This document shows positions 8,444 to 51,172 of a stretch of DNA of 51,718 bases, one piece after another (the first letter of the stretch is position 1; every line of letters begins with the position of its first letter). Source of the DNA: a virus. The notes beneath the pieces are model-generated. The model was not told where the DNA came from, did no database searches, and worked only from the letters and a program-made list of their open reading frames with translations. A program made the translations under genes and the position numbers. Where the stretch lies: IMG/VR virus record IMGVR_UViG_3300013383_000248; one strand, 5' to 3'.

Positions 8444-9451
8444 TTAAATCACAGTTTGGACTTGAGGGATTCTGCATTTTTCACATACTCTTTCTTTCTT
8501 ATTATTAGAATAAAATAAATTATAGCAATTTTCACACTGATGAATATTAGGATCAAGTGCCAAACATTCAGGACATACATGGACCTTTACTCCATCAATT
8601 TCAAGGGGAAAATCTTCCCAATCATAATATAGCTGATTACAAAAACTACAATTAATGAGTTTATCATCATCAAAATCATAAGGCATATGATATTTGCTAG
8701 TCAGTGTAATCCACTGAAGATATTCTTTACTAGGAATAAACTTATAATAATCTGCCTTACTAATATCATCAAGCATATTGCATACTTTATTAATGGTATT
8801 ATACAATGTCCTAATATGCAAATCTTCATTCTGAGTATGCTCATGATGATACCCTACTGACAAATTTACTCCGGCAATACCCCACTCCGGCATAATAATA
8901 CTAATATCTGTAAATGACCCAAGTGCTTGTCTAAACCCAAAACTTTCAACATATTCCACGAACGTGAAATTTTCGCACTCATAGAAGACACAATCTCTTT
9001 CTCCTGCTCTATCCAGTTCAATCATATATTTAATATTTGGAGCTACTGGATGTCTTTCTATAAACATATGCGCACCATAGCCACCGACTTCCTCATCTGT
9101 TGTAAAAAGAACATAAGGCCTATACTTCTTACGCAGAATCTGGATAATCGCAAAAACACCTGCTCTATCATCCGCACCAAGGCCTTCCTTGCCTTTATAA
9201 ACAGCTCTTTTTTCATTATAGGTAAATTGCCTAATCGGCTGTCTAAATACGGTATCTACGTGTGCGATAAGCATTACCGGAATATTACCTTCAGCGTATA
9301 CATAATCTTCTGTAATTTCTACATTAGAATATTTATTAGAAACAAAATCACCGAGAGCTTTTAAAAGACCTACTTCACTAATTTTGAATAGCCCCTCCAA
9401 AAGCCCTCTACAATTTTCAGTAAATTCAGGAACTAAAACTTTTTTACCCAT
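8444..9451 (-). CDS. M42/M28-like metallopeptidase domain fused to C-terminal tandem zinc ribbons (335 aa)
   Basis: metal-ligand motifs IAHVDTV, GADDRAGV, TTDEEVGGYGA; C-terminus CSFCNQ..CPEC..CENC..CEKC. Confidence 0.5.
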   Translation of the reverse strand: MGKKVLVPEFTENCRGLLEGLFKISEVGLLKALGDFVSNKYSNVEITEDYVYAEGNIPVMLIAHVDTVFRQPIRQFTYNEKRAVYKGKEGLGADDRAGVFAIIQILRKKYRPYVLFTTDEEVGGYGAHMFIERHPVAPNIKYMIELDRAGERDCVFYECENFTFVEYVESFGFRQALGSFTDISIIMPEWGIAGVNLSVGYHHEHTQNEDLHIRTLYNTINKVCNMLDDISKADYYKFIPSKEYLQWITLTSKYHMPYDFDDDKLINCSFCNQLYYDWEDFPLEIDGVKVHVCPECLALDPNIHQCENCYNLFYSNNKKERVCEKCRIPQVQTVI

Positions 9452-10966: not shown

Positions 10967-12601
10967 TTAAATTGCAATTGGCGTATTGCCGTTATAAAAA
11001 CGTTCAGGATAATGATTAATATATCTTGTGCTAATCATGTCAGCATAGGGATCATTCCCAATAACTTTTTTAGCTCTCAAATCCAAATCATCTTCTTCAA
11101 TCAGAAGAGCATTTAATCCCCAATAAGGAGCACCATTTAATCCAACTGTCTTAATTCTAATATCATAATTCTCTAACATTTTCGGCAATTCTTTATTAAC
11201 AAGACAATCAGTACAAACATAATGTTCATCATAGTCAGTGTTAATACTTTGATTTTCAATATGTCCAACAAATACTGGAATGAAGTCATCTTCAAAATGA
11301 GCTTCTTCACAGCACATACATCTATGCAAATCATTAAAGCAGTCTTCACAGACTAACTCTCCGTCTACATCAATTGCGTCATATTCACCAATACGTTCAC
11401 CACAACAATAACAATAAGTAGGCGGGTCGCAATCTTCGCAAACAACTGCTTCAGTATCATCAGTCCAATAACCACTCTCACCGCAGCACATACAAATCAT
11501 TGGACCTGAATAATTGATTGATGCCATTCGATTTCTATTATCAGGAGGTTCAACTGAGAAAATACCATAATTATCGCTATTGCCAAAATCATTATACATT
11601 TCATCAGTCTCAAATTCCAATAGGAATGGAATATCCTCTTTATCATCATCCCAAGCTTTAATATAAGAGCTGCTGTCCAAATTCTCCTGTGGCGTATCTC
11701 TATTATAACGCCATTCAGTCTTTTCTTCAACCAAATCAGCAAGCCAATTTACAAGTGCCTTATCAAAAGAAATATTATAATAAGGATAAGATTTAACAGA
11801 ACAAATTGTATAAGGATGAATGATAATCAATTCTCTCCAGCTCTTAGAGGTCCATTCAATCGCTGTATTCGTAGGATAATAAGGCTTGCTTGTAATATAA
11901 GCAACAACAACCATAGGGCTATTCATCATTTCAATAGTGCCCGCACGGTAGCCTCCCGGCCCTTGAGTCCAGTTCATGCAGCTTTCCCACCCATTTGCAT
12001 TATCGCTCATAGTCATATAATCCAAAGGATGAATAGAAAGAGTAAATTTAATTTTACTCTTACGCACTTCAGTAATGCGTGAAATACGATTGCGGAAAAT
12101 TTCAAAGTCAGGTAATTCAAATTCCTTAGCCATCTTCTGAAGAACCTTCATTACTTTGGCGCCTTCTGGAACTTTAATAGTCTTGCCTTCTTTATTACGA
12201 TAACTAAATCCTTTAGAAAGTTTGTTGGTATAAAGCTGCCGACCATTACTCAATCCATTTACAGCAACTCGAACGTCAAAATCATTATCTAAATATTCAG
12301 TGCTTTTGAATACTTTTCTAAGACTATCAAGAAACAAATAACCCGGTGCTTTACAATCAAAGACATAATCATTAATTTCTTTAATCTTTTTATTAGCCCC
12401 GTCTTCAATTTCAATTTCCTTTTCAAGCATCAACTTTCCACCGAAAATATCAAACAAAGTTTGTTTATTTTTATTCCATTCTTTGAGAATATGTTCAAGT
12501 GATGCTTTCAAAGTGAGATTATTTCTAACGCCACCCCACTTCTCAATGTATTCAGTAATATATTTTTTATCTTGCTCAGTTAATACTTCAAAAGGTGTCA
12601 T
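10967..12601 (-). CDS. large Cys-rich paralog P2 (544 aa)
   Basis: core SIHPLDYMTMSDNANGWESC...YRAGTIEMMNSP; C-terminal CMCCGE..CEDC..CYCCGE..CEDC..CMCCEE..CTDC zinc ribbons. Confidence 0.6.
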   Translation of the reverse strand: MTPFEVLTEQDKKYITEYIEKWGGVRNNLTLKASLEHILKEWNKNKQTLFDIFGGKLMLEKEIEIEDGANKKIKEINDYVFDCKAPGYLFLDSLRKVFKSTEYLDNDFDVRVAVNGLSNGRQLYTNKLSKGFSYRNKEGKTIKVPEGAKVMKVLQKMAKEFELPDFEIFRNRISRITEVRKSKIKFTLSIHPLDYMTMSDNANGWESCMNWTQGPGGYRAGTIEMMNSPMVVVAYITSKPYYPTNTAIEWTSKSWRELIIIHPYTICSVKSYPYYNISFDKALVNWLADLVEEKTEWRYNRDTPQENLDSSSYIKAWDDDKEDIPFLLEFETDEMYNDFGNSDNYGIFSVEPPDNRNRMASINYSGPMICMCCGESGYWTDDTEAVVCEDCDPPTYCYCCGERIGEYDAIDVDGELVCEDCFNDLHRCMCCEEAHFEDDFIPVFVGHIENQSINTDYDEHYVCTDCLVNKELPKMLENYDIRIKTVGLNGAPYWGLNALLIEEDDLDLRAKKVIGNDPYADMISTRYINHYPERFYNGNTPIAI

Positions 12602-12658
12602 TGATATTTACTCCCTTTATTTTTTCTATATATATTATATAATATTTTTATAAAAAAA

Positions 12659-12691
12659 TAAAGGGAGGCCTTTTACCAAGGTCTCCCTTTT
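12659..12691 (-). terminator. rho-independent terminator
   Basis: aaagggaggccttttaccaaggtctcccttttt. Confidence 0.6.
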
Positions 12692-17460: not shown

Positions 17461-17539
17461 ATATCTCCCATCCTTTCTATATATATTATATCAAATTTTT
17501 TATAAATTTTCGAGTTTTTAATTTTGACAAGAGTTTAAA

Positions 17540-19219
17540 CTAAACATAATCGTTAGGGTAAGTTCTCTTTAAATATTCCTTGGCACTAACAATAGGTCCT
17601 TTATCCTGAAGGAAGGGACGCCAGATTTTTTCATCTACCTTATCAACATCAATATATTGATAATCGCCCCATTCATCCACTTCCTTCGGCACATCATCAA
17701 AATCATAATCATCATAGCAATCATCACAAACATCAAAAGGTCCTTTGACATCACGCTGATGCTTACCATTAGGAGTTTTTACTACAAACATATAAGGCAA
17801 ACTCTGCTTCTTAAAATCATAGTCAAGCCATTTACGCTCATCACAGCAGCTGCAGGTCGCCATACGTCCATCTGCACACCAACTGCAATAGGCAGCACCA
17901 GTCCAATTATTGAACCAAGCTTCACTTTCATCAATCCAAGAACCGCACTCATCGCACTGAATCTTGCCTTCGCAGCTTGCACATACAACCTTGTCAGAGT
18001 CAGTAAATGCATCCACATTTCCAGAAGGCTCAACATGGTAACCTTTGCCACAACACATACATTCTGTTTCGCCAGAGTAATTAATTTCTACTTCATCTAC
18101 TGTTGGATTAATATAAGCAGAATGATTATCATAGTAATCATTATACATAGCACCGGTCTTCATACGAATGAATACTTCGCCAAAGTTAGTTGTATTCTTT
18201 TGGTTCTGCCAAACTTCATACATCTTATCATCATAATGCCAGCCCATATTTTCCTCGGCCAGTTTCTTGATTTTATTCATAACAAAATCACGCAGATAAA
18301 TATTGAAATAAGGATACTGCTTTACCTCAGTAATAATATCCTTATTAACAATATACAAACAACGCCAACGCTTATTGCTCCAAGTTCTTTCGGTATCCTG
18401 CCCATAATAGTTAAGAGGATAATAAGGATGGTCAGACTCAACATATGCTTCAAGAACAACAGGCGAGTTCATCATTTCAATAGTGCCAAGACGATAATCG
18501 CCACCGTTATACCAGTTCATGCAACTATCCCAATTGCAATCATTATCACTCATAGTAAGATAATCAAGCGGATGAATGGACAGTACAAGGTCAGCATCAA
18601 TCATTCGGTCATTCAGAACACGGGAATGGAGAATACGGAATTGCTCAAATGCATCTTTATCCAATTCAAACCAATCAACAATCTTAGCCATCATTCGCAT
18701 AAGCTTCATATCAGTCTTAAGCTCAAGCGGCTTAGACCCTTCAGCATGCGGGCCACGATTAAGAACAACAGACTTGGGACCCCAATCAAGCATATACTGA
18801 TTCTTATTAACAACAAGGGATTCAGTATCAAGACAATGCTCAATGATGGCACAACAATACATACGCTCATCTTTGTCAAGAGTTGTATCCATCCAATGAT
18901 AATATGTAGAAGTAATTTGCTCGTAAGCATTAATGAAATCTTTCACTTTTTCCAATTCAGGATTATTATAGATTTCATCATACATTTCATTAATCTTATC
19001 TGCCAAATCATCATTAGAAGCTTCATATCTGATGTGCTTTTTAACCATCAGATTATTGCCGAGAAGCTCAAACAGTTCAGGCTTTTCCGCAGCCCAAAAC
19101 CGCAGCAGGTGATTGATTTCATCTACATCATTACATTCATCAGAATGAAGATACATTTTAATATAATCACTCAAAAGAGTTTTTTCTTCTTCCGGAATAA
19201 GTGTTCTTAAGTCTGTCAT
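17540..19219 (-). CDS. large Cys-rich paralog P3 (559 aa)
   Basis: core SIHPLDYLTMSDNDCNWDSC...YRLGTIEMMNSP, C-terminal CMCCGK..CASC..CDEC..CSWC..CSCC..CDDC ribbons; N-terminus alignable with P2. Confidence 0.6.
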   Translation of the reverse strand: MTDLRTLIPEEEKTLLSDYIKMYLHSDECNDVDEINHLLRFWAAEKPELFELLGNNLMVKKHIRYEASNDDLADKINEMYDEIYNNPELEKVKDFINAYEQITSTYYHWMDTTLDKDERMYCCAIIEHCLDTESLVVNKNQYMLDWGPKSVVLNRGPHAEGSKPLELKTDMKLMRMMAKIVDWFELDKDAFEQFRILHSRVLNDRMIDADLVLSIHPLDYLTMSDNDCNWDSCMNWYNGGDYRLGTIEMMNSPVVLEAYVESDHPYYPLNYYGQDTERTWSNKRWRCLYIVNKDIITEVKQYPYFNIYLRDFVMNKIKKLAEENMGWHYDDKMYEVWQNQKNTTNFGEVFIRMKTGAMYNDYYDNHSAYINPTVDEVEINYSGETECMCCGKGYHVEPSGNVDAFTDSDKVVCASCEGKIQCDECGSWIDESEAWFNNWTGAAYCSWCADGRMATCSCCDERKWLDYDFKKQSLPYMFVVKTPNGKHQRDVKGPFDVCDDCYDDYDFDDVPKEVDEWGDYQYIDVDKVDEKIWRPFLQDKGPIVSAKEYLKRTYPNDYV

Positions 19220-24743: not shown

Positions 24744-26873
24744 TTAGTTCTCCTTTTTATCTTCAAGATTAAAAATTGTTTTTAATTCTTCTACTTTATC
24801 AAGCTGTTCCCATGGGCTATTACATTCAACGCGACCAAAATGGCCGAAGCAGGCATAAGGAAGGTAGCGTATATGTTTTAGGTCAAACTGATGAATGATA
24901 CTGCGTGGTGCAAAATCAAATGTTTGATTAACTGCATCAAGGATTTCAGCAATAGGCTTCTTCTCTGTGCCGAAACAATTAATATCAATAGACGCCGGTT
25001 CCGTTTGACCAATGATATAGGCCACTTGAATCATGCACTTATCGCATACTCCTGATGCAACAAGATTTTTAGCCACATAACGTGCCATATATGCACCACT
25101 GCGGTCTACCTTACTTGGGTCTTTACCTGAAAAACAATTACCTGTAATGAAAACTCTATTATTATATCTTAATACAAGGTTATGAGAAGACACATTAATA
25201 CAATACATCCACGGGTCATTATCCTCATAATCTTCAATAGTTAAATTTGCGATTGAAGGGCCTGAAGTTCTAAATGGAGTAGAATATTTATATTTACCTT
25301 GTCTTACTTCATAACAGATACTCTTACGAGCATAATTTTCTTTAAATGTTTCATCTACTCTATCATCAATAGAAAAATGAGAAGATGTGCCATATACTGA
25401 CATAAAAATAAATTGTATAAAATCAGCTTCATCTTTATGAGTAGTTCTAAATACACAATCTCTATCTCCATCCCATTTAATTACCTCATCAGCAATTACT
25501 TGGGCCTGATGTAGATTACATTTAGACAAACATTCATTCATTTTTTTATTTACAAAAGAGGGCTTATACCAAAAGATGTTATATTCTTTATCTGTAGTTT
25601 CATTATAATTAAATCCTGTTGAAGCAAATAGTTCCCTTAATGCTTCTTTTTTATATTCTTTTTTAACTCTGATTCTTCCAGTCCATCCTGAATTTTCTTT
25701 TAAAATAGACCCATCTGCACAAAATGCTATTTGCAATCTAATTTCATCATCAGTTAAATTAAGACCAGGATTATCTTTAAAATCATAAGTAAAATAGATA
25801 GGGATTTGAACACTTCTAAAACCGTTATTTTTATAATAATGATCTAGAATTTCTTGGCAAGTTTTCTTTTGATAATTACCTTTAGATGTTCTATACAGGA
25901 CGTTATGATTGTCAGATAATACCATATCTAAAGATTTATTAGTAGCAATATGATACATCTTAGTCTTAGGAAGTCTTATAAATTCACCATTAACAAATGA
26001 AATCTTACCATCATCCCATTGAGCTACTTTATCATCAGAAGAAAATTCAGAAATCTTTTTCCAACCATTAAGAGTTAAAAATTCTGTATCTCCATTTACA
26101 CATCCGCCGCCATGAGGTGCATATCCGCCATACGTATCTACAACAATCTTACGACCGGTCAATCCTGTATCAGCCTTGGGACCGCCTTCTACAAACTTGC
26201 CTGTTGGATTAATATAAAATTTACAATCTTTTTTAATGGCATAACCTTGAAGGGCAATATTACAAATGTTCGTAATATCAGGCGTAATCTCTTTAATACT
26301 ATATTTGTCTTTATGTTGGGCTGATACGACAATTGTATCAATCCCTTCAAAGTTGCCATTATCATCATATTGGACAGTTACTTGGCATTTACCGTCAGGC
26401 AATGCCCAAGGAAGTAAATCATTCTTATACTTGCTGAACATAATGACCGAGATATTATTAGCAAGTTGCTGGGCAATAGGCATATAGTTTTCTGTCTCAT
26501 TAGTTGCATAACCAAACATCATACCTTGGTCGCCCGCACCATCCCTATCAACACCCGCAGCGATGTCAGGAGATTGATTTACTACATTAATAATATATGA
26601 ACAAGTGTCGCAGTTAAATCCTGCTTCATCATTGTCATAACCAATAAATCTAAGAGTCTCTCTTGCAATTTCCTGATAAGGAATAGACTGATTTGTCTTA
26701 GCCGTAATCTCTCCCATAATATGGAAGATACTCGGACTAATAGTACATTCACAAGCTACTCGTGCATCAGGGTCGAGCTGGAGGACATAATCTAGGATAG
26801 CATCACTTACCTAATCACAAACTTTATCTGGATGACCCGCAAAAACACTTTCACTAGTAAATAAATAACTCAT
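24744..26873 (-). CDS. metK: S-adenosylmethionine synthetase (MetK) interrupted by an intein; 709 aa precursor; one TAG codon at 26811-26813 aligning with conserved Gln
   Basis: [30 protein letters not shown] (E. coli HPDKIADQISD); GAGDQGMMFGYA; GGPKADTGLTGRKIVVDTYGGYAPHGGG | intein | CFSGKDPSKVDRSGAYMARY; GGAGG RBS. Confidence 0.85.
25137..26102 (-). mobile_element. intein (322 aa) with LAGLIDADG-type homing endonuclease, inserted in MetK after HGGG
   Basis: starts CVNGDTEFLTLNGW, contains IRLQIAFCADGSIL (LAGLIDADG-like), ends VFITGN followed by +1 Cys of CFSGKD. Confidence 0.7.
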
Positions 26874-26895
26874 ATAAAATATTTCCTCCTTTATT

Positions 26896-26934
26896 TTATA
26901 TAAATATTATATAATATTATTTTTTATTTTTCAA
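26896..26934 (-). promoter_or_regulatory. AT-rich sigma70-type promoter copy
   Basis: ttatataaatattatataatattattttttatttttcaa. Confidence 0.5.
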
Positions 26935-29373: not shown

Positions 29374-29481
29374 AAGGTTATTGCCTCCTTGTCAATTTTT
29401 TTATTTCTCATTTCTTTATATAAATATTATATAATATTTTTTTATAAAAATAAATAAGCCGATTGGGGCTAACCAACCGAC

Positions 29482-30636
29482 TTATGTAATAGGTTTAGAG
29501 ATTCCAGGAGGAAGTGTAATATATGTTTCATCACTAATGGCATTCCAGAGACATAGCCATTTACGATAATCATTATATTCTTTGTAATGAAGCGTCTTTA
29601 CATTAGGTACTTCATCTTCAGTACATACTTTAATAAATACTGTATTATTATCAAGATTATATGTTTGATAATATCCATTATCCAAAAGGACAACTACAGA
29701 ATTATCTGCACCCCATTGGATATATGTATTTTCAGAGAAGGATTGAAGCTCGTGATAATTTTCTATTTCAACTACTGAGTTCTCTTTGCTATCAGAAACT
29801 TCACAATAAATAATTGATAGGAAACCACTAATGCAAAGAGCTACTGCACACGTGGCAAATAGGGTAAAGAAAACTTCGCTCTTAAACCAATCCCAAATCT
29901 CTGAGAAGCCATAGTATTTAACATATCGATAAATACTATACATAATAGTAATAACAATAGCAATTATAAAGAAAATCATTCTTCTACTTCTCCCCCCCCC
30001 ATAAACTCAATAAAGCTGCGATTTTCAAGAGCATTAATAGTAAAATAATGATGATGAAGATCTGTACTACCAGGAGTTCCTACAATTGCCAGTTCATACC
30101 AATTTTTTTCAATTTTACGAATATACATAATAGGAATAAGTGCAGTGTTAATACGAATAGGATATTTATGGCCCTCAACTTTAACTTTATAAATCATATA
30201 TTAGCTCCACAATTTACACAATAAGTTTTTTCATCAACAATAAGAACTTGGTCATTCTTGAGGATGGCGCCGCACCTGACACAATGCGGTGGATTAGAGC
30301 AGAAGAATTTGCAGCCTGGATCTTCCTCATCGACACGCAAGCCAGAAATGATGCGGCATTGGCCTTGAATGCGGTAGCCGCATCTGCCGCACCTTTGCAA
30401 ACTCACCAAATTACATTCTCCTGAATGACATTAAGAGCTTCAGGACTTACTTCAAGACAATCATCCGGTGAAAATGCTTCTAGCTCTACTTTGTTAATGC
30501 TGTCAAAGTATTTACAAATCTTTTCCATAGCATCAGTATAACCTTCTTCATCAATCTCATTGCCGGCGTACACTAGCCCTGTTTCATCTCTTGGCTTATC
30601 ATCAAAATTCCAATTTACTTTATATCTAAAATACAT
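29482..30636 (-). CDS. four small proteins: TM protein 29482..29979, 29976..30197, Zn-ribbon protein 30194..30409 (CGRCGY..CVRCG..CVNCG), 30403..30636
   Basis: overlapping ORFs downstream of promoter 29405-29450. Confidence 0.4.
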
Positions 30637-35382: not shown

Positions 35383-35588
35383 AGGTCATTAAATGCGTCT
35401 ATAGCGTCTTGACAGTCTCTTATGTTATCAAATGTAAATGTTTCAATGCCGTTAGATTTAGTTGTAAGTTCCATGGTTAATTCATTGTTTAATTCATTTT
35501 GAGTATAGAATTTTACACTCATAATATCATTAACGGCATAGAAAAATATATTATTATCATCTAAGGCAAACTATATAAACTTTTTCAT
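35379..35588 (-). CDS. small hypothetical protein (69 aa) with TAG at codon 6; missed by ORF track
   Basis: ATG overlaps upstream stop (ATGA); MKKFI-TAG-FALDDNNIFFYAVNDIMSVKFYTQ... ending TGA overlapping next ATG. Confidence 0.35.
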
Positions 35589-36046
35589 GTAAGTGCCTCC
35601 AGATATGCGTCTACTGTTTTTGTATACTTAGAATAGTCGATTTCTGTATTCCAAGAGCGAATCTCTGAGAGAATGTCATCAATTGTCGCGGTTGCATCAG
35701 GGTTTCTAGAATAGTCTACTGCAAGGGCAGGTTCTTTAGGATGTCGCCGCCGCTTTAGCGGGAAGCGTTCACATGCGGCGATATTTTTCTTGAAATTCAC
35801 TTTTCCATAATTGCCCATCGTGCCTAGGCAGTAGAGGTTGTCGGGGTCATTCTTATTAATCATATAAGCATACATACAGTCAGGCAGAAGCTTATGATAG
35901 GGGTCGTATTCTTTAAGGCAGTAGATGGTAGTATAGTCAAGTTGGTTTGCGGCAAGTTTCTTTTGAAATTCACCGCCGCCAAGGACACAGACTTTAAGGT
36001 TGTTGTAGCTACCAACTTCGCCATTTTGCTCACGATAGTTTGGCAT
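35585..36046 (-). CDS. hypothetical protein (153 aa)
   Basis: ORF; last minus-strand gene before the divergent regulatory region. Confidence 0.45.
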   Translation of the reverse strand: MPNYREQNGEVGSYNNLKVCVLGGGEFQKKLAANQLDYTTIYCLKEYDPYHKLLPDCMYAYMINKNDPDNLYCLGTMGNYGKVNFKKNIAACERFPLKRRRHPKEPALAVDYSRNPDATATIDDILSEIRSWNTEIDYSKYTKTVDAYLEALT

Positions 36047-36443
36047 AATGTATTTTTATCTCCTTTTTATTTCTATATATATTTTATCAAATTTTTTTAA
36101 TAAAAGCGATTATTTTTGATAGTTTATATACAAGAGTAAGCTATCAGGAACATTTCAACAAGTTTATCATAAGGTAGGAGAAGATTAGTCTTATGATGAA
36201 TGATATGAGTGTTAACAAAATGTGTTAAAAAAACTCATTCTTAAATAATTTACATAAGATTTTCTAGAATACCCTATTGCAACCGCAGCAATTTTTGGGT
36301 CAAAGTTATCAAGTTGATTAATTGAAAATTGATAAATAATTGAAACTTGAAATAAAACGCTACCCACTCTATATATAGTAAGGTGTGTAGAAAATTATTT
36401 CAAGTTTCATCATAAGATTTTCTAGAAAGGAGGTAATGTAATC
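36047..36443. promoter_or_regulatory. divergent control region: plus-strand TTGAAA-N17-TATATA promoter (~36347-36382), two copies of palindromic operator ATAAGATTTTCTAGAA (36218-36233, 36414-36429), repeated AATTGAAA boxes, 11-codon leader ORF
   Basis: exact 16-nt direct repeat containing palindrome TTCTAGAA, second copy between TSS and RBS of the plus-strand gene. Confidence 0.5.
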
Positions 36444-37115
36444 GTGATTGAAATTGGTAAAACCTATAAATTTAAAGAAGAATTTTGTAGGGAACTAGGT
36501 ATTCCAAATTGTCAAGTGGAACGTAGATTAAATGATTTATTAGATTGGCTAAGTAGCTTCTATGATTTTGATTTCAAAAAAAGTCGTCCATTTCTTATTA
36601 CAGTTAAAGAGATTATTGGTGAGTATAAACCCTTACCTCGTAAACTAACTAAAAGTAATGAACTTACTGAATAGAAGAAAAAAGATTATGCTGAATTTAC
36701 TAAATTTTCTCTAACTCCTGACTATACACCTAATAGTAAATCTAAAGTAGCTCGTGAAGCTATGGCATAGTTTGGTAAAGAAAAATATGGTCATATTAAT
36801 TAGAGATGGGTCATTCGTAATTTTGTTAAAGAACCATTTAATAAGTATGGAGAAACCAATGATGAAAGTGTATGGGTATATTATTCTACTTATAAGCCTC
36901 TTGAACCTGAAGTATGTGAAAAATGGCGTAGTATTTTGAGAGAAGAACATATTGGTGAAGAAGAAGCCAGTAATGCATTCTATCGTCAAGCTGAAGGATA
37001 GGATATTTCAAAAGAATTAGGCTATTTTAAAAAGGCAAGAGATAGATTTATGGAAAAGTATGATGATATTCCTATATTAGTTAAGGAATGGCGTCTGAAG
37101 AAAGACGTTGAATAA
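36444..37115 (+). CDS. plus-strand protein of 223 aa containing four in-frame TAG codons (GTG start, AAGGAGG RBS)
   Basis: frame is open from GTG 36444 through four TAGs to TAA 37113-37115, which is immediately followed by a hairpin/T-run terminator. Confidence 0.55.
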
Positions 37116-37116
37116 A

Positions 37117-37150
37117 AAAATGGAGGCTTATGCCTCCATTTTTGTTTTAT
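37117..37150. terminator. bidirectional rho-independent terminator
   Basis: aaaaaaatggaggcttatgcctccatttttgtttt. Confidence 0.7.
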
Positions 37151-37156
37151 ATAAAC

Positions 37157-37454
37157 AATTATTGAATAGGAGTAGTGTAGATATTGTTTATATAAAAAGA
37201 ATGATTAGGTAAAATTTTTAAAATATATGTAAGTAAAAGGAAGCGGATAGTAGATAGGGATATAAGCAATGTTATAATAAAATAGCATTAAAATTGTAAT
37301 AGATTGAAATTCAATTGTGTTAAATTGAGCCAAATCGTATTAAATTGAGTCAAATTAAGCCAAATTGAGAAGCGGGTGTGGCCCTACTGTACATGCTGTT
37401 GTTCTTGTATCCACTATGGACCGTCATCAAATCTTCTCCAACCTATTCAATAAT
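37157..37454. repeat. ~300-bp AT-rich element bounded by 17-bp inverted repeats AACAATTATTGAATAGG and containing iterons TAAATTGAG(C/T)CAAAT
   Basis: caattattgaatagg at 37157 and its exact reverse complement at 37440; internal direct repeats ttaaattgagccaaat / ttaaattgagtcaaat / aagccaaattgag. Confidence 0.5.
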
Positions 37455-37576
37455 TGTTTTTTTTAATATTATATCATATTTTTTTTAAAAAGTCAAATTA
37501 GAGCATTTTAAAGAGTAAGTATAGGGGCTTGTCCCCTATACTTACGATTGATAGGCCGGCTTGCCCGGACTATCAT

Positions 37577-37981
37577 TTACCACCCCATCAGATCAAGAAA
37601 CTTGTCAATGACTTCATCAGCAGAGCCAGTAAACTTATAGACCTTAGTCTTAGTCTTATCAGTAGGTTCCTTAACCGCCTTACCAAGGTCATCGAAGGCA
37701 CGACCTACCTTACCAGCCACATCAAACACCTTCATCAGGTCTTCCGGTGCAATCTTAATGTCATAAATGTCATAGCCGTAATAATCCTTTGCAAACTTAA
37801 CCAGGCTCTGGCAGATAACCTCTGCATCAGCCTTCTTTACTTCTTCTCTCTTGGACTTTTCAGCCTGAGCCTTCAGTTCCTCATCCCTCTTGGTCTGTGC
37901 CTTATTCAGTTCCTCAGTGATGCTCTTAGCAATATCCTCTGCGGATTCACCCTTCATCAGACGATCATAAAAATCATACAT
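37577..37981 (-). CDS. hypothetical charged helical protein (134 aa)
   Basis: ORF with two tandem promoters at 38020-38140. Confidence 0.45.
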   Translation of the reverse strand: MYDFYDRLMKGESAEDIAKSITEELNKAQTKRDEELKAQAEKSKREEVKKADAEVICQSLVKFAKDYYGYDIYDIKIAPEDLMKVFDVAGKVGRAFDDLGKAVKEPTDKTKTKVYKFTGSADEVIDKFLDLMGW

Positions 37982-38264
37982 ATGTATACTACCTCTTTAT
38001 AAAGATTTCCAGAACTCTTTATTCTGTATATATATTATAACAAAAAATTTTTTGAAAGCAAACTGGAAAAATTTTCCAGCTAATATTTTTTTTATTATTA
38101 TATAATATTTTTTTTAAAAAGTCAACTTTCGGGAAAATCAAGGGCCATATGAAAGTCCGCTAGATTGAGCAAAAAATTGCCATATGGTAGGTTTTTCTAG
38201 AATTCCGGTCATCACCTCCAGTGACGACCGGCTGAAATTACCATCTGTTCCAAATATTTCCTTG

Positions 38265-40335: not shown

Positions 40336-40665
40336 GAGTTTTTTTTATTATTTGAAAATTTCTTTTTGATTGCCTTTCGTGTTTTGTCCTCTCTCTTGGA
40401 ACAATTATAGTTTATCACATCTTGCCCAAAATGTCAAGAAGAATATTTATTCATTTTCAATGAATATTTATGCACGCTTTAACACTTTAATGCACTAAAG
40501 TGGTGCCGCTTTAGGGATTTATCACTTTAGTCAAATGAAGCAGGATTTTGCTGGAAAAATTGGTAAATACTGGAAAAAACGAAAATTCCTCGCGGCTGGG
40601 CCGTGGCCGCGAGGCTCAAATGTCAATAGTCAAAATGCACAAAAATAAAAGGGGCATTTCTGCCC

Positions 40666-41229
40666 CTATACATTCGCCATTACCAAATTGTAATTATTTT
40701 CAAAAACTTGTAAATCTTCAACAGTCGGTTCAAAAGCCTCAAATCTGTCATTCGGGATATACTTATGAGACTTGCGGAAATAATTTCTCATCAGACTTTC
40801 CAGCACCTGAGCCAAATCATCATTCGGCACTTGGTAAGATTTTACAACTTCTACATCAGAGATAACAACGCCATCCCTTTTGTATTCATGGTTAATAAAA
40901 TCACGCATCCGCTTTACAACAATATTAGCTTTTCCAATTTTTGTAAAAACCCAATTGCCTACATCATCGAACATCTTAATCAGATAAGTGTTGCTAACTC
41001 CATCTTCTTTTGGACGCTTCTTAGTGATAAATTCACCAATGGCAAGAATTACCCTGTTTACTTTATCCAGAATATACTTTTTTGCCCAATCCTTACAGGC
41101 ATTAAAAATTTCTTCACAGGCTTCAAACCAATGCGGCTTCCAACGTGCATTAGCATTGTCAAATCTTTCCTTTGCACCCTCAAAATCATTCGAGGAAACA
41201 TAATCAGAATAAGTGGGATTTTTTGCCAT
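40666..41229 (-). CDS. hypothetical protein (~187 aa from ATG at 41229)
   Basis: AGGTGATAAAA-ATG RBS/start (MAKNPTYSDY...); track ORF uses an upstream alternative start. Confidence 0.45.
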   Translation of the reverse strand: MAKNPTYSDYVSSNDFEGAKERFDNANARWKPHWFEACEEIFNACKDWAKKYILDKVNRVILAIGEFITKKRPKEDGVSNTYLIKMFDDVGNWVFTKIGKANIVVKRMRDFINHEYKRDGVVISDVEVVKSYQVPNDDLAQVLESLMRNYFRKSHKYIPNDRFEAFEPTVEDLQVFENNYNLVMANV

Positions 41230-41284
41230 TTTTATCACCTTTTTCAATTTTTTTTGTAGAAAATGGGGAAAATTCCCCATTTTC

Positions 41285-41731: not shown

Positions 41732-42153
41732 GCCTTAGTGTAGAACACTCTACGCTTCTCCGTGGTCTTGACGACCCTGCCACTATCTACCAGCGGCTTA
41801 ATCAGGCTTGCCATCTTCTGAGAAGAAAGTTCCGTCTCATGCTCTGCATTATATTCAGAGACAACAGGCAGTTCCTTCATCAGGTCTGCGATTGCATACT
41901 TGCGTTCAAACGCCATCTGCTCATAAATATGTTCAGTGTAAGCGGCGTTTTTCTCCTGTTCCTGAGACTGCTTCTTGTTTTCCTTCTTATTGTCCAGCAG
42001 TTCAATCTGGTGATTGATGAAGTCAATCAGAGATTCATCTGCGTCATGCTGGGCGAGGAAGTCAGAAACAGAGGTGAACATTTCCTTGCGGGTGGGAGCC
42101 TTAATCTTATCCATAGTATCAATTCCTTTCTGGTTTTTAAGTGTTTCCCTCAC
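41728..42153 (-). CDS. family-B small protein, copy 2 (141 aa)
   Basis: C-terminus LVDSGRVVKTTEKRRVFYTKA; start/stop overlap with copy-2 A gene. Confidence 0.5.
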   Translation of the reverse strand: MRETLKNQKGIDTMDKIKAPTRKEMFTSVSDFLAQHDADESLIDFINHQIELLDNKKENKKQSQEQEKNAAYTEHIYEQMAFERKYAIADLMKELPVVSEYNAEHETELSSQKMASLIKPLVDSGRVVKTTEKRRVFYTKA

Positions 42154-44351: not shown

Positions 44352-44588
44352 AATATATCATTTCCTTTCATTTGGTTATTCTCTCTTGGAACAATTATAG
44401 TATAACTGATTCCGGGAGAAAAGTCAACTGTCATTTTGCACAAAAATTTGGGCAAAAATTTGTGCAAAGTGCTAAAAATCTTAAATTCTGGCTGTGACGC
44501 ACGATCACAGCCAGCTCAAATGTTTTTCCATCTAATTCCAATAGGAAGGAAGAAAATGGGAATCCAAATTCTGGATTCCCATTTTCTT

Positions 44589-45516: not shown

Positions 45517-45900
45517 TCAAACTAATTTGATATTTTTATAATTTTCAATCACGCGGGCACTTGCGAATGGCATAATTGACATATCCTTTGCTTTAGGGTC
45601 TACACTGATTTGGATATTTTTTCCAAGAGCATAGGCGTATCCGATTTCCCAAGCTGTTCCAGAATCAGAATACAAACCATCATACACAGCAAAAACCATG
45701 TCGCAGTCTTGAATTGCCGCGATATCCATTTTGAAAACTTCACGTGCCCAATTTTCCTGCGACATATCCCAAGCATTCGGGATTGTATGTTCTTGCGGCA
45801 CATATACATCATACCCAAGCCGGCGGAAACCAGCCACATATGAATCAATTCTTTCTTTAGTCTCAGGGCGGAAGAAAGCACCAGCCATATAAATCTTCAT
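45517..45900 (-). CDS. nucleoside 2-deoxyribosyltransferase-like protein (127 aa from ATG)
   Basis: MKIYMAGAFF...DSGTAWEIGYAYALGK signature; upstream TTG start in track lies inside a terminator hairpin, so the ATG at ~45900 is preferred. Confidence 0.55.
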   Translation of the reverse strand: MKIYMAGAFFRPETKERIDSYVAGFRRLGYDVYVPQEHTIPNAWDMSQENWAREVFKMDIAAIQDCDMVFAVYDGLYSDSGTAWEIGYAYALGKNIQISVDPKAKDMSIMPFASARVIENYKNIKLV

Positions 45901-45935
45901 TCCACATTTTCCTTTTCTTTTGGATAGAGGGGATT

Positions 45936-46133
45936 TCAAAATCCCCTCTTGATTTTCTCAAATGCGGGATAGAATCTATCTTCCCACATATCCATCAAAT
46001 CTTGGTCGTTAGTCCGCTGGATTTCCCAGACAAGAGCCCCATATGCGTTATGCTCATACAGCTCAGCCTGCTCAGGGTACTCTCGTGCCCACTCCATCTG
46101 CTGATTGATAAACGACACAATTGTATTTTCCAT
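45936..46133 (-). CDS. small hypothetical protein (65 aa)
   Basis: TTGACT-N17-TATAAT promoter at 46140-46175 and AAGGAAAGGGG RBS. Confidence 0.4.
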   Translation of the reverse strand: MENTIVSFINQQMEWAREYPEQAELYEHNAYGALVWEIQRTNDQDLMDMWEDRFYPAFEKIKRGF

Positions 46134-46427
46134 TTTGTATTCCCCTTTCCTTTTGTACCCTTATTATAGCACAGGGCATACCAGAAGTCAAGCATAAAAT
46201 ATTCGTCAAATTGCACAAAGATTTTGGGAAAAATTTCCAAGAGCTAGATTGGTAGATTTTGGAAAACTTTTTTACGTTAGCACTTTAATTGGCTAAATTC
46301 CGGCCGCATGGGGCGTGTGCGGCCGGACCGAATGCTTTCCCAGATTATGGGACTGTTAAAATTTGCCGCATTTGACTTTTCAACTGGAAAATTATAGAAT
46401 TAAAATAGAAATAAAAAATTATTTTTT

Positions 46428-46505
46428 TTATATAAAAATTATATTATTTTTTTTTATAATTTTCAAATAAGATTTCCTCCCAAAATATTGGGAGGAAATT
46501 CAAAT
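46428..46505 (-). promoter_or_regulatory. AT-rich sigma70-type promoter copy followed (plus coordinates 46475-46505) by hairpin cctcccaaaatattgggagg
   Basis: tatataaaaattatattatttttttttataattttcaa is the only copy of the AT-rich motif found in the GC-richer half. Confidence 0.45.
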
Positions 46506-46510
46506 CATTT

Positions 46511-47868
46511 CTAAAATTTATCGTGTGGAATTTCGGGATAGTCAAGAATTTTTGCGACAAATTCATTATACTTATCGACTATCATATATTTTTCTTCAAG
46601 GCGTTTTTTAATATAATACTCAGCTTCTGAGCGGCACGAAGCATCTACAAAAAACACTCGTGGCCAATTTTCCTCAGCAGGATTAAGATTGATTACTAGA
46701 TATTTCCAAGTTGGATAACCTTTCACATTTACCACTCCTTAACATTTAATGTAGCTTCTACGGTGTAAACTTTTGTATCATCAGGGAAACAATCAAATTC
46801 TCCGGTAGCTAAATCAATAGCATTGATTTCATCGCCTTCATTGTCAAGAGATTCTGTTTTCATGTGAATTGTATCTGTTCTAGGGTCACGGAATACTGTT
46901 CCAATGTCAAGGGAAGCAAAATGCACAAACACTTTTTTTCTGGCTGTACTCAATTTTCATTTTCATTTTTCCTTTCTATTTTCTAACTAGCCTTTTGGCA
47001 ATATTCTTTTGAATTGTATTATATAGGGCTTTCGGCATCTGCATTTGCCCGTTGGCTCTAAAAATGGCGGTTGCTTTATCAAGGTTGACATAGTATAATG
47101 TGATTAGAAATTTCATTTCAATATCTGTAATTAAAATCACTCCTGTGTCTGTAAGGATTTGCCATTTACCTTGATATTTGAATTGAGCCACCGGATTACC
47201 TATGCCGGTATTCATTTGAATTTGAACATATCTGTCTAAGCGGTCATTCTTGATATGTTTGCTAACTTGCAATTTTGTAATATCCATTCTAATTTCCTCC
47301 TTTTGGAAGAGGGCTCTTCAGCCCTCGTTCCTATCATCTTCAATCCAACGATTAAGGAACTGTTCACAAGTTTCTTCTGGATTATCAATAGCTGAATCTT
47401 GACAAGCCATTTGAAAAGGGCAGACATCGCAAGAGGAACGACTGAGCATATCAATCAGCATTTCCTTATCAAGGATATATTTTGCAAATTCAGACATTTT
47501 CATTTTTATTTCCTCCTTAGTCAATATAAGTGGACGTTAAGCAAATCCATTCGCGGTTCTGGTACTTGGGGCTTCTCTCCCTAGCGTCTGCTAGGGAGTA
47601 GCCATATGCAATTTCAGTTTCATTCGTGTTGACGTTGAACATCTCGAATTCCCACATAATGTCAACCCTCCTCGATGCAACCGCAGACTGCGTACCACAG
47701 ACCCATATACTCATCATAGTTGCGGGCATATGTGTTGCAGAAGTTGTTCATGCTCTCAGCACTGAAATCATGGTCATTGTCAATCCATTTGCTCAACAGT
47801 TCGGCGATTTTTTCCATTGTCATTTTTTGTATCCTCGTTTCATTTTTATTTCGTTCCCCTTGGAACAA
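46511..47868 (-). CDS. six small hypothetical proteins: 46511..46735, 46729..46953, 46976..47287, 47318..47524 (CxxC), 47517..47729, 47662..47868
   Basis: compact minus-strand ORFs with overlapping ends; driven by promoter 47873-47901. Confidence 0.35.
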
Positions 47869-48214: not shown

Positions 48215-50168
48215 TTAAACCGCCTGATGTGCCAGATTCTGCCATTCATAGATGATGTTCTGGCCTACTTCATTTGCAATTTCTCTAGCCTGACGTCTGG
48301 TGTAGGCGTGTTTTGTGCTACTGATGTAATATTTTCCATTTTTGAATTGAATACTGCAACCACCATCTAAAGTATTAAGCATTTTCACTGCAAAGATTGC
48401 CATTTCAGGAATATCAACATCATAAGTTTTTACATTCACCTGAAAACCGCCCTTGTACTTTTTGATTTTCCCATTCTTGATGTTCAGGGTATCGCCGTCC
48501 TGCATTTTCTTGATAGTTCTTACGTTAATCATTTTCAATATTTCCTTTCTGATTTTTAATTTGGTTTGTTGTTTTATGAGAGGGCTTTCCGCCCTCTCAT
48601 TTTACTCGTCCATCATGACGAAGAAATTCCAGCTTGAATACTCAGGTCTGCCGTCAGCAGGGTTATTGTGGCGGACCACCTGACAGAATGAAATAGAAAT
48701 CCAGAGCATAATAATGATTCCGGATAGGGTCAGTGCAAGTTTGATATTTTTCATTTCAAATTTTTCCTTTCGACTTTTGGATTCAGGTGCTCGATTGTGC
48801 AGTTTGAAAGCGGTAGAAGGACCTTAGAGGTCCTTCACTACTAGCGTCAGATGGTCGGCAGTATGTTCGATTGCCTGCACCACCTGATATGTTGTAAAAT
48901 GATAAGTAGTCAGTAGACCAGAAGTAAAGACCGCAGACCTACTGCCGAAGCCCACGATTTCAAGCTCTTGCATAATATAGAGCTTTTCTTCCAGTTCGCG
49001 ATAAAAGGCGTTCTGCCAAGGGCAGTTGAATGTGCAGGGCAAATGCCATTTGCAATATTCAGTCTGAACATTGTTTTTGTCCAGAAAGCGGATTTCAACA
49101 TAGGGATTGAGATTGTTAAGTTCCATATTATTCCATCCTTTCTATTGGAAGCCAAGGGTTTTAACCCTTGGCTCTATAGGTCTCAGTGCCATTAGAATAC
49201 TGTGCCATGACTTCGCCGGTTTCCATGTCAATGACATCACGTTCGTTCCGTGCCCACAGGCTGTAGGCTCGTGCCATGTGCCGTGCCGCACTCAGGCTCT
49301 TGTAAAGAATGCCATACTTGCCAGTGCTCAGATTATAGATTTTGTACATGATGTTGCTCCTTTCCTGTATCTGGTTGGCTTAGTCAGCCAACCAGATATT
49401 GCGACTATTTGCGATACACCAGCCGCGGCAATTCTTAGACAGCCGCTCGATATCCTCAGCCAGATACATAGAATAGCCATAGGCATCAGTCAGCTTTTTC
49501 ACCTTACCCTGAATGCTGTTGGTAAGCAGGCTATAGTACCTAGCCCAGTAGATAGTATAGCTAGCCTCAGCGATCTGCTGAGCAAGGTATTCACGCTGAG
49601 CGTTCATCTCTTTACGCTTGGGGTCGGAATAACCCAGTTCCTTAGTGGCACTGTTCAGACGCACAATAGTCTTCTGCATGGCGTTCAGGCGAGCACTTCT
49701 TCTGTTGATACGATTCATAATAATCCTCCTAATAAATGTTAGTTGGTTGGTAGGTGAAGAAGCTTATGCTTCTTCACCATATAACAGAGTGTACAGGTTG
49801 TCAAAGAAGTCCTCAAGCATATGCTCAAAGACATCTGCCCATTCTTCGGCCTCATCCTGCAAGTCTCTCAGTCTCTGGTAGATTGCATCATATTCGGGGC
49901 ACGGACAGCCGGTTTCCATGTCCATATTGTAGTCTGTGTGTTCAAGGTCATATTCTGCACTGTCAATAGCCCATGTCAGACTATCCCATGCGTCAATGTT
50001 CTGTGCCGCATAACAATGGTATTCTTCTACCATATGCTCCCAGTCGAAGCTATCGCCAAGCATATGGTACTGCTTGACATATGTCAAGATATCTTCTGCC
50101 TGCTCTACGAGTTCTTCTTTGATTGCCTTTTCCTTGGTTTCCTTGCTAGTGATTATTGTATGTACCAT
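48215..50168 (-). CDS. five hypothetical proteins: 48215..48538, 48824..49126, 49161..49349, 49380..49718, 49764..50168 (acidic)
   Basis: minus-strand ORFs, none with recognized motifs. Confidence 0.4.
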
Positions 50169-50915: not shown

Positions 50916-50962
50916 AGAATTTAATTCTCGCCTTAATCATCTTTAATTACTCGATAACCATT

Positions 50963-51172
50963 CTATTCCAATGTCTCTTTTGCAAGAGCTACAGCATCGC
51001 TTGCTTCAGGGCATTCGATGCACAAAAAAGTCTTTCCATCTACTTCATCAATATAAAATTCATAATTATGACCATTTACCATATGTAGTTCATCACGAAG
51101 CTTAGAAGGAATCATTAAACGTCCAACTGTATCGAGTTTTCTCGTATATGCTGTCTTAAGCATTCTACTCAC
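50963..51172 (-). CDS. AbrB/SpoVT/MazE-family swapped-hairpin DNA-binding regulator (69 aa)
   Basis: RKLDTVGRLMIPSKLRDEL...EFYIDEVDGKTFLCIE resembles the AbrB N-terminal domain (DELGRVVIPIELRRTL..). Confidence 0.55.
   Translation of the reverse strand: MSRMLKTAYTRKLDTVGRLMIPSKLRDELHMVNGHNYEFYIDEVDGKTFLCIECPEASDAVALAKETLE

Follow-up and report, generated by a model that had tools for sequence, protein, structure and literature searches.

A lone, TAG-rich opposite-strand gene as a test case for the idea of phage expression timed by code switching

IMG/VR virus record IMGVR_UViG_3300013383_000248 was analysed over a stretch of 51,718 nucleotides (hereafter the window), the 51 kb of a phage genome of roughly 130-170 kb to which all statements on gene content below are limited. 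By codon-usage score, essentially all window genes run on the minus strand; one open reading frame (ORF), at 36444-37115, lies on the plus strand, is interrupted under the standard code by four TAG codons, and is preceded by an intergenic control region called IG1. The locus raises the question of whether this ORF is a gene at all and, if so, whether its TAG codons and control region are parts of a switch coupled to recoding. An original prediction, made from the DNA letters by themselves, had proposed such a switch with a duplicated palindromic operator. The comparisons reported here indicate that the ORF is a real, conserved gene in which TAG is read as glutamine, and its product is predicted to bind DNA; the pair of identical operators does not hold up as a conserved feature.

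Published work on recoded phages describes early genes that the standard code can read and late genes marked by recoded stop codons (Borges et al., bioRxiv 10.1101/2021.08.26.457843). This idea of timing by recoding is widely cited and rests on statistics over structural and lysis genes. The present locus is a compact and tractable case, in which one conserved predicted DNA-binding gene with recoded codons stands amid genes that avoid them, and in which natural relatives with 0 to 7 TAGs provide built-in controls. The lone TAG-laden opposite-strand gene is a good test case for phages timing expression by code switching.

The plus-strand gene and its glutamine codons

The coding signal was assessed with a codon-usage score trained on the long minus-strand ORFs. 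The ORF at 36444-37115 scored +0.27 bits per codon and was the sole plus-strand ORF with a convincing signal, which agrees with the original description of it as the only gene on that strand in the window. Two other plus-strand ORFs exceeded the score cut-off, both short (30248-30424, 59 amino acids; 41808-42017, 70 amino acids and nested in a minus-strand ORF), and were taken as spurious. The remaining long plus-strand ORFs (45735-46403, 48692-49210 and others, some with TAGs) were set aside as having the hydrophobic, low-complexity translations typical of antisense shadows.

Homologues of the product numbered 89 by word-indexed search and about 200 clusters at 50% identity by exhaustive hidden Markov model search, the latter returning stand-alone proteins of about 220 amino acids or fragments of them. 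Many fragments start or stop at profile position 60-63, and several relatives have a TAG exactly there, at the conserved glutamine of GEYQPLPRK. The gene defines a new protein family that standard-code gene callers have cut into fragments. The relatives are tailed phages, represented by contigs of 130-170 kb from human-gut metagenomes and viromes, and the loci fetched from them are cited here by number (L001 and so on). Their start codons (GTG, TTG or ATG) occupy the equivalent position in alignments, the Shine-Dalgarno sequence is also conserved, and in relatives too the gene is an opposite-strand island. A 95%-identical relative differs from this gene by 36 nucleotides, 22 of them in third codon positions, a pattern that indicates purifying selection. 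The GC content of the gene is 30.5%, against 43% in the immediately flanking genes.

That the ORF might be a pseudogene or non-coding had been raised in the original prediction itself, and the four in-frame stops of the standard code would fit a pseudogene, or DNA that is open by chance. Such a reading is contradicted by the homologue clusters, by the bias of substitutions to third positions, by a confident fold prediction, by the conserved start codon and Shine-Dalgarno sequence, and by a SAM synthetase gene elsewhere in the window that independently proves TAG to be glutamine. From the homologues, the substitution pattern, the alignments of TAG with glutamine and the SAM synthetase TAG, a pseudogene can be regarded as excluded and code 15 as established, and we consider the former close to impossible.

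The in-frame TAGs of the gene lie at 36672-74, 36768-70, 36801-03 and 36999-37001 (codons 77, 109, 120 and 186); the count of four is as originally given, and the ORF is otherwise open. Across the family these sites are glutamine or glutamate, and in a 95%-identical relative the four codons are GAG, CAG, CAA and TAG. The SAM synthetase (24744-26873, minus strand) has a single in-frame TAG, which aligns with the invariant glutamine of GHPDKxCDQxSDA. By these alignments TAG is glutamine (code 15) in this phage. Standard decoding would halt after residue 76 because codon 77 is TAG, and the earlier claim that the product can be made only when TAG is decoded is borne out for the full-length protein.

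TAG makes up four of the six glutamine codons of the gene, which has no CAG, as opposed to 10 of 297 in 59 scored minus-strand genes, where the other 287 are CAA or CAG (Fisher p = 4e-5); the unusual TAG richness noted at the outset is thereby upheld. Between 27.5 and 46 kb no other gene contains internal TAGs, bar one ambiguous codon near a 3' end. Four ORFs (17486-19219, 40630-41280, 46505-46735 and 50933-51172) have a TAG within their last 2-18 codons that may be either a true stop or read through. The other TAG-rich ORF of the window encodes an HNH endonuclease (2766-3395; 8 of 13 glutamine codons TAG, none CAG, 26% GC). Homologues with 1-5 TAGs, at positions that vary from lineage to lineage, were found in L001, L003, L013, L014, L015, L017 and L018, and in these same relatives nearly all scored minus-strand neighbours have zero TAG and use CAG freely.

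The concentration of TAG might have arisen by neutral drift, with TAG as a synonymous glutamine codon that gathers in AT-rich genes that are weakly expressed or newly acquired, and has no regulatory meaning there, and with the 17-nt repeat of the control region as the relic of a duplicated promoter/leader module, not an operator. Relatives at 95% identity do exchange TAG for CAG or CAA freely, the positions of TAG depend on lineage, and the two TAG-rich ORFs share a low GC content and the lack of CAG. Against drift, every TAG-using relative examined pairs TAG-free, CAG-heavy neighbours with a TAG-bearing homologue, which amounts to a consistent difference in constraint, and in the left part of the window, which is as AT-rich (31-35% GC), TAG is rare. 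Neutral drift is thus judged unlikely, while retaining a substantial share of belief; the repeats that bear on it are described below.

The product itself was modelled through homologue P0001 (77% identical), for which AlphaFold2, with an alignment of 60 sequences, gave a predicted local distance difference test score (pLDDT) of 86 and a predicted template modelling score (pTM) of 0.77. The N-terminus of the model, in the order strand-helix-helix-helix-strand-strand, forms a winged helix, and the product, which belongs to a new family, is predicted on this basis to bind DNA. Sequence-profile searches of Pfam, NCBIfam, PHROG and PDB gave zero matches, Foldseek searches of PDB and BFVD with the model gave nothing significant, and the C-terminal 160 residues have no structural neighbour. 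The truncated product of the standard code, residues 1-76, would correspond to the winged helix and a linker.

The control region and its repeats

The features of IG1 and its surroundings are listed in Table 1. In alignments of close relatives (including L002, L013, L014, L015, the L022 group and L031) IG1 is modular and prone to insertions and deletions, and it also has to serve the leftward genes.

Table 1 Features of the plus-strand gene, its control region IG1 and the adjoining DNA.
Position	Strand	Feature	Basis or occurrence
35704-35711	.	Flanking TTCTAGAA site TTTCTAGAAT, within the upstream minus-strand gene	Same place in L022 group
36047-36443	.	Intergenic control region IG1, 397 bp, 25% GC, separating the plus-strand gene from the start of minus-strand gene 35585-36046	
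36081-36089	-	Candidate extended -10 TGATAAAAT of the leftward gene's promoter, AT-rich TTTTTATAAAAATATTATAAT type	Putative, from sequence reading
36163-36178	+	Module-1 motif (A)CAAGTTTATCATAAG, orphan 'right arm' without partner arm	In all close relatives
36253-36269	+	Copy 1 of 17-nt repeat CATAAGATTTTCTAGAA	Exact repeat
36292-36305	+	Family-wide box TTTTTGGGTCAAAG, dyad TTTTG-N2-3-CAAAr	Most relatives, including distant ones
36330-36340	+	Candidate extended -10 TGATAAATAAT for the plus-strand gene	Putative, from alignment; not flagged by consensus scan
36341-36409	+	Long bulged hairpin: 13-bp outer stem, 4x4 internal loop, 9-12-bp inner stem, loop CTATATATAGTAAG	
36375-36403	-	Leftward promoter-like site TTGAAA-17-TACTAT, in hairpin right arm and loop	Consensus match only, 9/12
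36411-36427	+	Copy 2 of 17-nt repeat CATAAGATTTTCTAGAA, beside the Shine-Dalgarno sequence	Exact repeat
36429-36434	+	Shine-Dalgarno sequence AGGAGG, start codon 9 nt on	Read from sequence
36444-37115	+	Coding sequence, 223 codons, GTG start, TAA stop; new family with predicted N-terminal winged helix	
37116-37143	.	Bidirectional intrinsic terminator, 12-bp stem between A-run and T-run	
37144-37496	-	IG2, candidate structured non-coding transcript of ~320 nt, ending at the shared terminator	
38195-38202	.	Flanking TTCTAGAA site TTTTCTAGAAT, 1.08 kb past the gene	Conserved in L001, not L022

Two exact copies of a short repeat had been the centre of the original prediction. The 16-mer ATAAGATTTTCTAGAA does occur exactly twice, at 36254-36269 and 36412-36427, and the exact repeat extends to 17 nt. 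Copy 1 is 175-190 nt ahead of the GTG at 36444, in line with the 180 bp originally given; copy 2 ends 2 nt before the AGGAGG, and its placement within a 5' untranslated region is plausible only. The right half of copy 1 runs on as TTCTAGAATACCC, one half of the 18-bp palindrome GGGTATTCTAGAATACCC, whose symmetry is perfect in L013 and L031. The core TTCTAGAA is not over-represented window-wide (4 found, 1.85 expected), yet all four copies (35704, 36262, 36420 and 38195) are inside 2.5 kb around the gene, and this clustering is a further point against neutral drift. Conservation of the site at 35704 could equally come from coding constraint. A promoter of the AT-rich family (TTGACT-17-TATAAT, 38100-38129, minus strand) was found 66-72 nt from the site at 38195.

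Both 17-mers are the best-preserved core of a colinear duplicated module of about 50 nt, in which a variable arm is followed by tttcTACAAGTTTATCATAAG, 4-5 nt and TTCTAGAA. The window contains one orphan module (~36140-36269, with a 79-nt insertion inside) and one complete module (36341-36427), and L002 contains three to four in tandem, with seven copies of the motif CAAGTTTATCATAAG in both orientations. Because a longer module has been duplicated, the identity of the 17-mers is explained by common descent, with no operator needed, as neutral drift would have it. Their exact identity is also lineage-specific. The left half of copy 1 is altered, to CATAAGGCTGTTCTAGAA or similar, in 95%-identical relatives; copy 2 is conserved in the window, L013, L004 and the L022 group and is missing from L002, L014 and L015. 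The duplicated operator therefore fails as a conserved feature on the alignments, and a protein site at copy 1 is plausible.

A different element, the family-wide box TTTTTGG(G/A)yMAAr (TTTTTGGGyAAAg; dyad TTTTG-N2-3-CAAAA), lies upstream of the homologue, always in the orientation of the gene. Close relatives have about 150 nt between it and the start codon; among distant ones (including L004, L005, L007, L008, L010, L016 and L018) the distance is 75-245 nt. A similar box occupies the spacer of the TTGACA-17-TAAACT promoter at 40395-40431, and others adjoin promoters at 44.4 and 27.4 kb, the latter box being at 27.37 kb. The idea that the TTTTGGGyAAA box is a general promoter element of the phage was rejected, as it occurs at only a few intergenic sites and not upstream of most genes. 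The strong consensus promoters at 40395-40431 and ~44390-44420 (both minus strand) have in common a conserved leader, TA(A/T)ACTATAATTGTTCCAAGAGAGA, and the former, which is conserved in L001, L013 and L015, has a TTTTGGGCAAG box within its spacer. One lineage (L003 and L004) has the box duplicated: a second plus-strand ORF is inserted just upstream of the homologue (L003 164-769; L004 3716-4321, plus strand) and has its own TTTTGGryAAAAG copy. This ORF encodes 201 amino acids with seven TAGs and a GIY-YIG-like motif (GIYAIY...YIGST); a third plus-strand ORF further downstream (L003 1956-2357) is without TAG.

Promoters could be proposed for both directions. The left edge of IG1 is highly conserved, resembles the AT-rich promoter blocks of many other intergenic regions, and probably drives the leftward gene; palindromic promoter-like blocks of the TTTTTATAAAAATATTATAAT type recur at 12613-12664, 26861-26912, 29410-29451 and 37454-37495. 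For the plus-strand gene, a TTGATAwAtAAT motif around the candidate -10 TGATAAATAAT is conserved in the window, L013, L014, L002 and L004.

Between this candidate -10 and copy 2 lies the long bulged hairpin. Its predicted fold has an energy of -29.4 kcal/mol (z = -4.2 relative to shuffles). Compensatory double changes affect 13 of the 25 pairs among seven relatives, and 92.5% of the aligned hairpin cells are paired compared with ~42% in slid controls, values reached by 0 of 500 shuffles. In the predicted RNA fold the ATTTTCT of copy 2 pairs with the Shine-Dalgarno region AGGAGGT. On the plus strand G-U pairs outnumber A-C pairs, which favours a plus-strand RNA structure. An Rfam search of 35900-37700 returned nothing credible, only terminator-like matches far under threshold.

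The hairpin could alternatively be a miniature invertible or bidirectional promoter, its outer arms supplying a -35-like TTGnnn and its loop a -10, such that a flip of the inner 40 bp would alter which strand holds the better -10 and thereby toggle the plus-strand gene. Several layouts recall this. In L014 and L015 the inner segment with its loop runs opposite to its orientation in L002, the window and L013; in L009 (~1130-1440) two perfectly inverted 70-nt hairpin copies flank ~165 bp upstream of the homologue in an inverton-like arrangement; and promoter-like matches face left in the window (TTGAAA-17-TACTAT) and right in the L022 group (TTGAAA-17-TATTAT). From the two kinds of inversion it follows that the hairpin also acts like a small palindromic repeat element, and part of its apparent covariation may come from inversion or template switching. 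Nevertheless, ten near-identical contigs from different samples have a single orientation, 40 bp is below the size for recombinase-mediated inversion, and no recombinase was called in the fetched loci. The excess of G-U over A-C pairs points to RNA, and the hairpin spacing of distant relatives does not fit -35/-10 geometry. A switch of this kind is accordingly very unlikely.

Downstream, the gene is followed by a bidirectional terminator that insulates it from leftward transcription. Relatives retain this terminator, and a single pair in it has changed in a compensatory way (GGCT/TGCC as opposed to GGTT/TACC). Towards the same terminator runs IG2, from a near-consensus promoter (TTGACT-17-TATAAT with TG, 37496-37468). 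A 25-nt inverted repeat (37146-37170 with 37442-37466) closes the candidate IG2 RNA, which has a fold z of -6.0 relative to shuffles and contains 10-11-nt TGAGCCAAAT repeats; IG2 also has three copies of a ~27-nt unit spaced by 20 and 10 nt. The plus-strand gene thus lies between its own control region on one side and, on the other, a terminator shared with a convergent non-coding unit. IG2 is conserved in relatives and includes a possible 25-codon ORF.

Repeats on both sides of an AT-rich gene would also suit a replication or partition module, in which the protein binds an origin or centromere formed by the repeats of IG1 and IG2 and their AT-rich DNA, and the strong IG2 promoter supplies transcriptional activation or a primer. 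AT-richness is a trait of every intergenic region. Many replication initiators have an N-terminal winged helix like the one predicted here. The CAAGTTTATCATAAG repeats of L002, in both orientations, and the phased short TGAGCCAAAT repeats downstream of a consensus promoter are compatible with such a site, and several contigs end just upstream of the gene. The protein, however, shows no similarity to the Rep, DnaD, lambda-O or ParB families, and GC skew keeps its sign across the locus. Iterons recognised by a protein behave differently from the inner arms of the IG1 hairpin, whose sequence changes freely while complementarity is kept. A genome terminus near the gene had been suggested by four long contigs that start 0.1-1.5 kb upstream of it; this was dropped because the two ends of L008 overlap by 55 bp, as is usual for a circular assembly opened at a repeat, so that its start is no physical end. 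A role in replication or partition is in sum quite unlikely.

A code-gated regulator and the evidence on it

The reading that we favour, tentatively and as something short of probable, is that the gene encodes a delayed, code-gated DNA-binding regulator whose full synthesis waits for amber suppression. Strong consensus promoters would let the host polymerase transcribe its neighbours, which would be translated by the host code, and full-length plus-strand protein would appear only once an amber-suppressor tRNA-Gln is active. The protein could then bind its own control region, at the TTTTTGGGyAAAg box, at the TTCTAGAA palindromes or at both, and possibly also similar boxes at strong early promoters, so that transcription would be reset after the code switch. 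At the RNA level the IG1 hairpin may act on the stability, processing or translation of the plus-strand mRNA, and the bidirectional terminator would keep antisense transcription off the gene. If the protein regulates transcription, the code switch would be linked to the transcription programme, and the published timer hypothesis would here extend to a putative regulator.

In a stronger form, the gene would be both sensor and effector of the code switch. The standard code would yield a bare DNA-binding domain, with the stop at codon 77 here and at the conserved glutamine codon 62 in many relatives, and suppression would yield the full-length protein; the effect on the shared control region, and on early promoters with the TTTTGGGCAA box, would differ between the two products. 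If true, the gene would turn the state of the code into a changed transcription programme. We regard this form as distinctly unlikely.

Several observations weigh against a code-gated regulator. A tRNA with a CUA anticodon was found by ARAGORN and Rfam neither in the 51-kb window nor in any fetched locus. The homologues of L007-L010, L016 and L020 have zero TAG, so that recoding is an overlay and not intrinsic to the function of the protein. The AT-richness of the gene, at 30.5% GC, keeps a purely compositional explanation alive, the second TAG-rich ORF is an intron-borne HNH endonuclease, and TAG richness could reflect composition or relaxed selection. As to the proposed sites, relatives that lack copy 2 (L002, L014 and L015) have no TTCTAGAA in its place, and the box is only modestly enriched in intergenic DNA, where 5-6 of its 9 matches lie. 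Sigma-70-like matches in the region are no commoner than in shuffled sequence (9 found, 9.4 expected), and every promoter assignment is for that reason tentative.

The original prediction had gone on to suggest an early/late or lifestyle switch tied to recoding. Such a switch is a proposal in keeping with the published hypothesis; neither an integrase or lysogeny gene nor an amber-suppressor tRNA was seen in the window. PHROG searches with the ten largest window genes, the four flanking genes and the family members (most small ORFs were left out) gave no integrase, excisionase, CI or Cro match. Three tRNA-like candidates were considered as suppressors and rejected: a match at 6561-6632 (minus strand; 45 bits in Rfam), whose 6-nt anticodon loop GTTAGT is without CTA, a tRNA at 1095-1167 called by Rfam only, with anticodon CAU, and a tRNA at 210-296 with anticodon UGA (Ser).

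Surrounding features and known systems

The window is at about 35% GC with a strongly negative GC skew. Its identifiable genes are of accessory or early type: a SAM synthetase with an intein-like insert, an RNA ligase, a peptidase, a nucleotidyltransferase and a phosphoesterase, along with a tRNA cluster at 0.2-6.7 kb. No structural or lysis genes were found within it, and neither DNA nor protein of this phage matched an annotated phage collection of 50,697 records. The insert that splits the SAM synthetase is of ~330 amino acids, and its middle matches a PhoH-like PHROG. Three large paralogues (7032-8477, 10967-12601 and 17486-19219, all minus strand) share the motif SIHPLDY(L/M)(T/S)(M/L)S(D/E)N and Cys-rich C-termini; Pfam PcfJ was found in a related gene of L001.

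The tRNA cluster has several unusual members. In the tRNA-Gln(UUG) gene (2701-3511, minus strand) the anticodon loop is split by a 735-nt intron that houses the HNH endonuclease ORF; Rfam called no group I intron there. ARAGORN reported tRNAs with 'introns' of 58-65 nt and anticodons UCA, GUG and UCC at 1422-1557, 4268-4403 and 6331-6470 (all minus strand). A T-arm-like hairpin, ATAAGTTCAAATCTTAT, is common to the inserts at 1422-1557 and 4268-4403 and to the end of the tRNA-Gln intron, and the insert at 1465-1519 was scored by Rfam as a tRNA without an anticodon arm. These inserts look like tRNA-like mini-elements nested in tRNAs. Adjoining the tRNA(CAU), which ARAGORN overlooked, is a match to the Y RNA-like YrlA (1170-1285, minus strand; 43.8 bits, E = 4e-8, under the gathering score of 69).

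Among known systems, long bulged 5' hairpins of phage mRNAs include the RNase III processing sites of T7 and the lambda N leader. The IG1 hairpin has in common with these a helix of ~22 bp with an internal loop, a place just upstream of the ribosome-binding site, and compensatory changes that preserve structure. Unlike them it occurs inverted and in multiple copies in relatives, and its transcription and cleavage are putative.

For the protein, the nearest parallel is with winged-helix repressors of the PadR/MarR type, with which it shares the predicted fold; it belongs to none of their profiles, and its C-terminal 160 residues are without a structural counterpart. Candidate palindromes for autoregulation of this kind are TTCTAGAA (18 bp in L013 and L031) and TTTTG-N2-3-CAAAA, at which binding is putative.

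In lambda (cI, with PRM and PR), P2 and 186 (CI), divergent or face-to-face promoters form a switch with an oppositely oriented repressor gene, and the CI systems of P2 and 186 also have flanking operator sites. The present locus resembles these in its lone predicted DNA-binding gene set against the bulk of genes, its compact two-way control region, and palindromes at that region with more copies a few hundred bp to 1 kb to either side. In contrast, the protein has no relation in sequence or fold to CI, Cro or Apl beyond a domain of generic helix-turn-helix type, leftward genes flank the island left and right, and the promoters here are candidates only.

The closest setting is that of code-15 recoded phages, for which experimental support has been reported (PMC9523058) and which include the phAss-1 group (PMC10607447). 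This phage has in common with them glutamine-decoded TAG in the gut and many standard-compatible genes beside a TAG-bearing subset, and its relatives, like theirs, differ in code use even when close. It has no detectable DNA or protein match to phAss-1. The published recoding bias concerns structural and lysis genes (bioRxiv 10.1101/2021.08.26.457843), whereas here the TAG-laden gene is a lone opposite-strand gene, predicted to bind DNA, in an otherwise TAG-free block.

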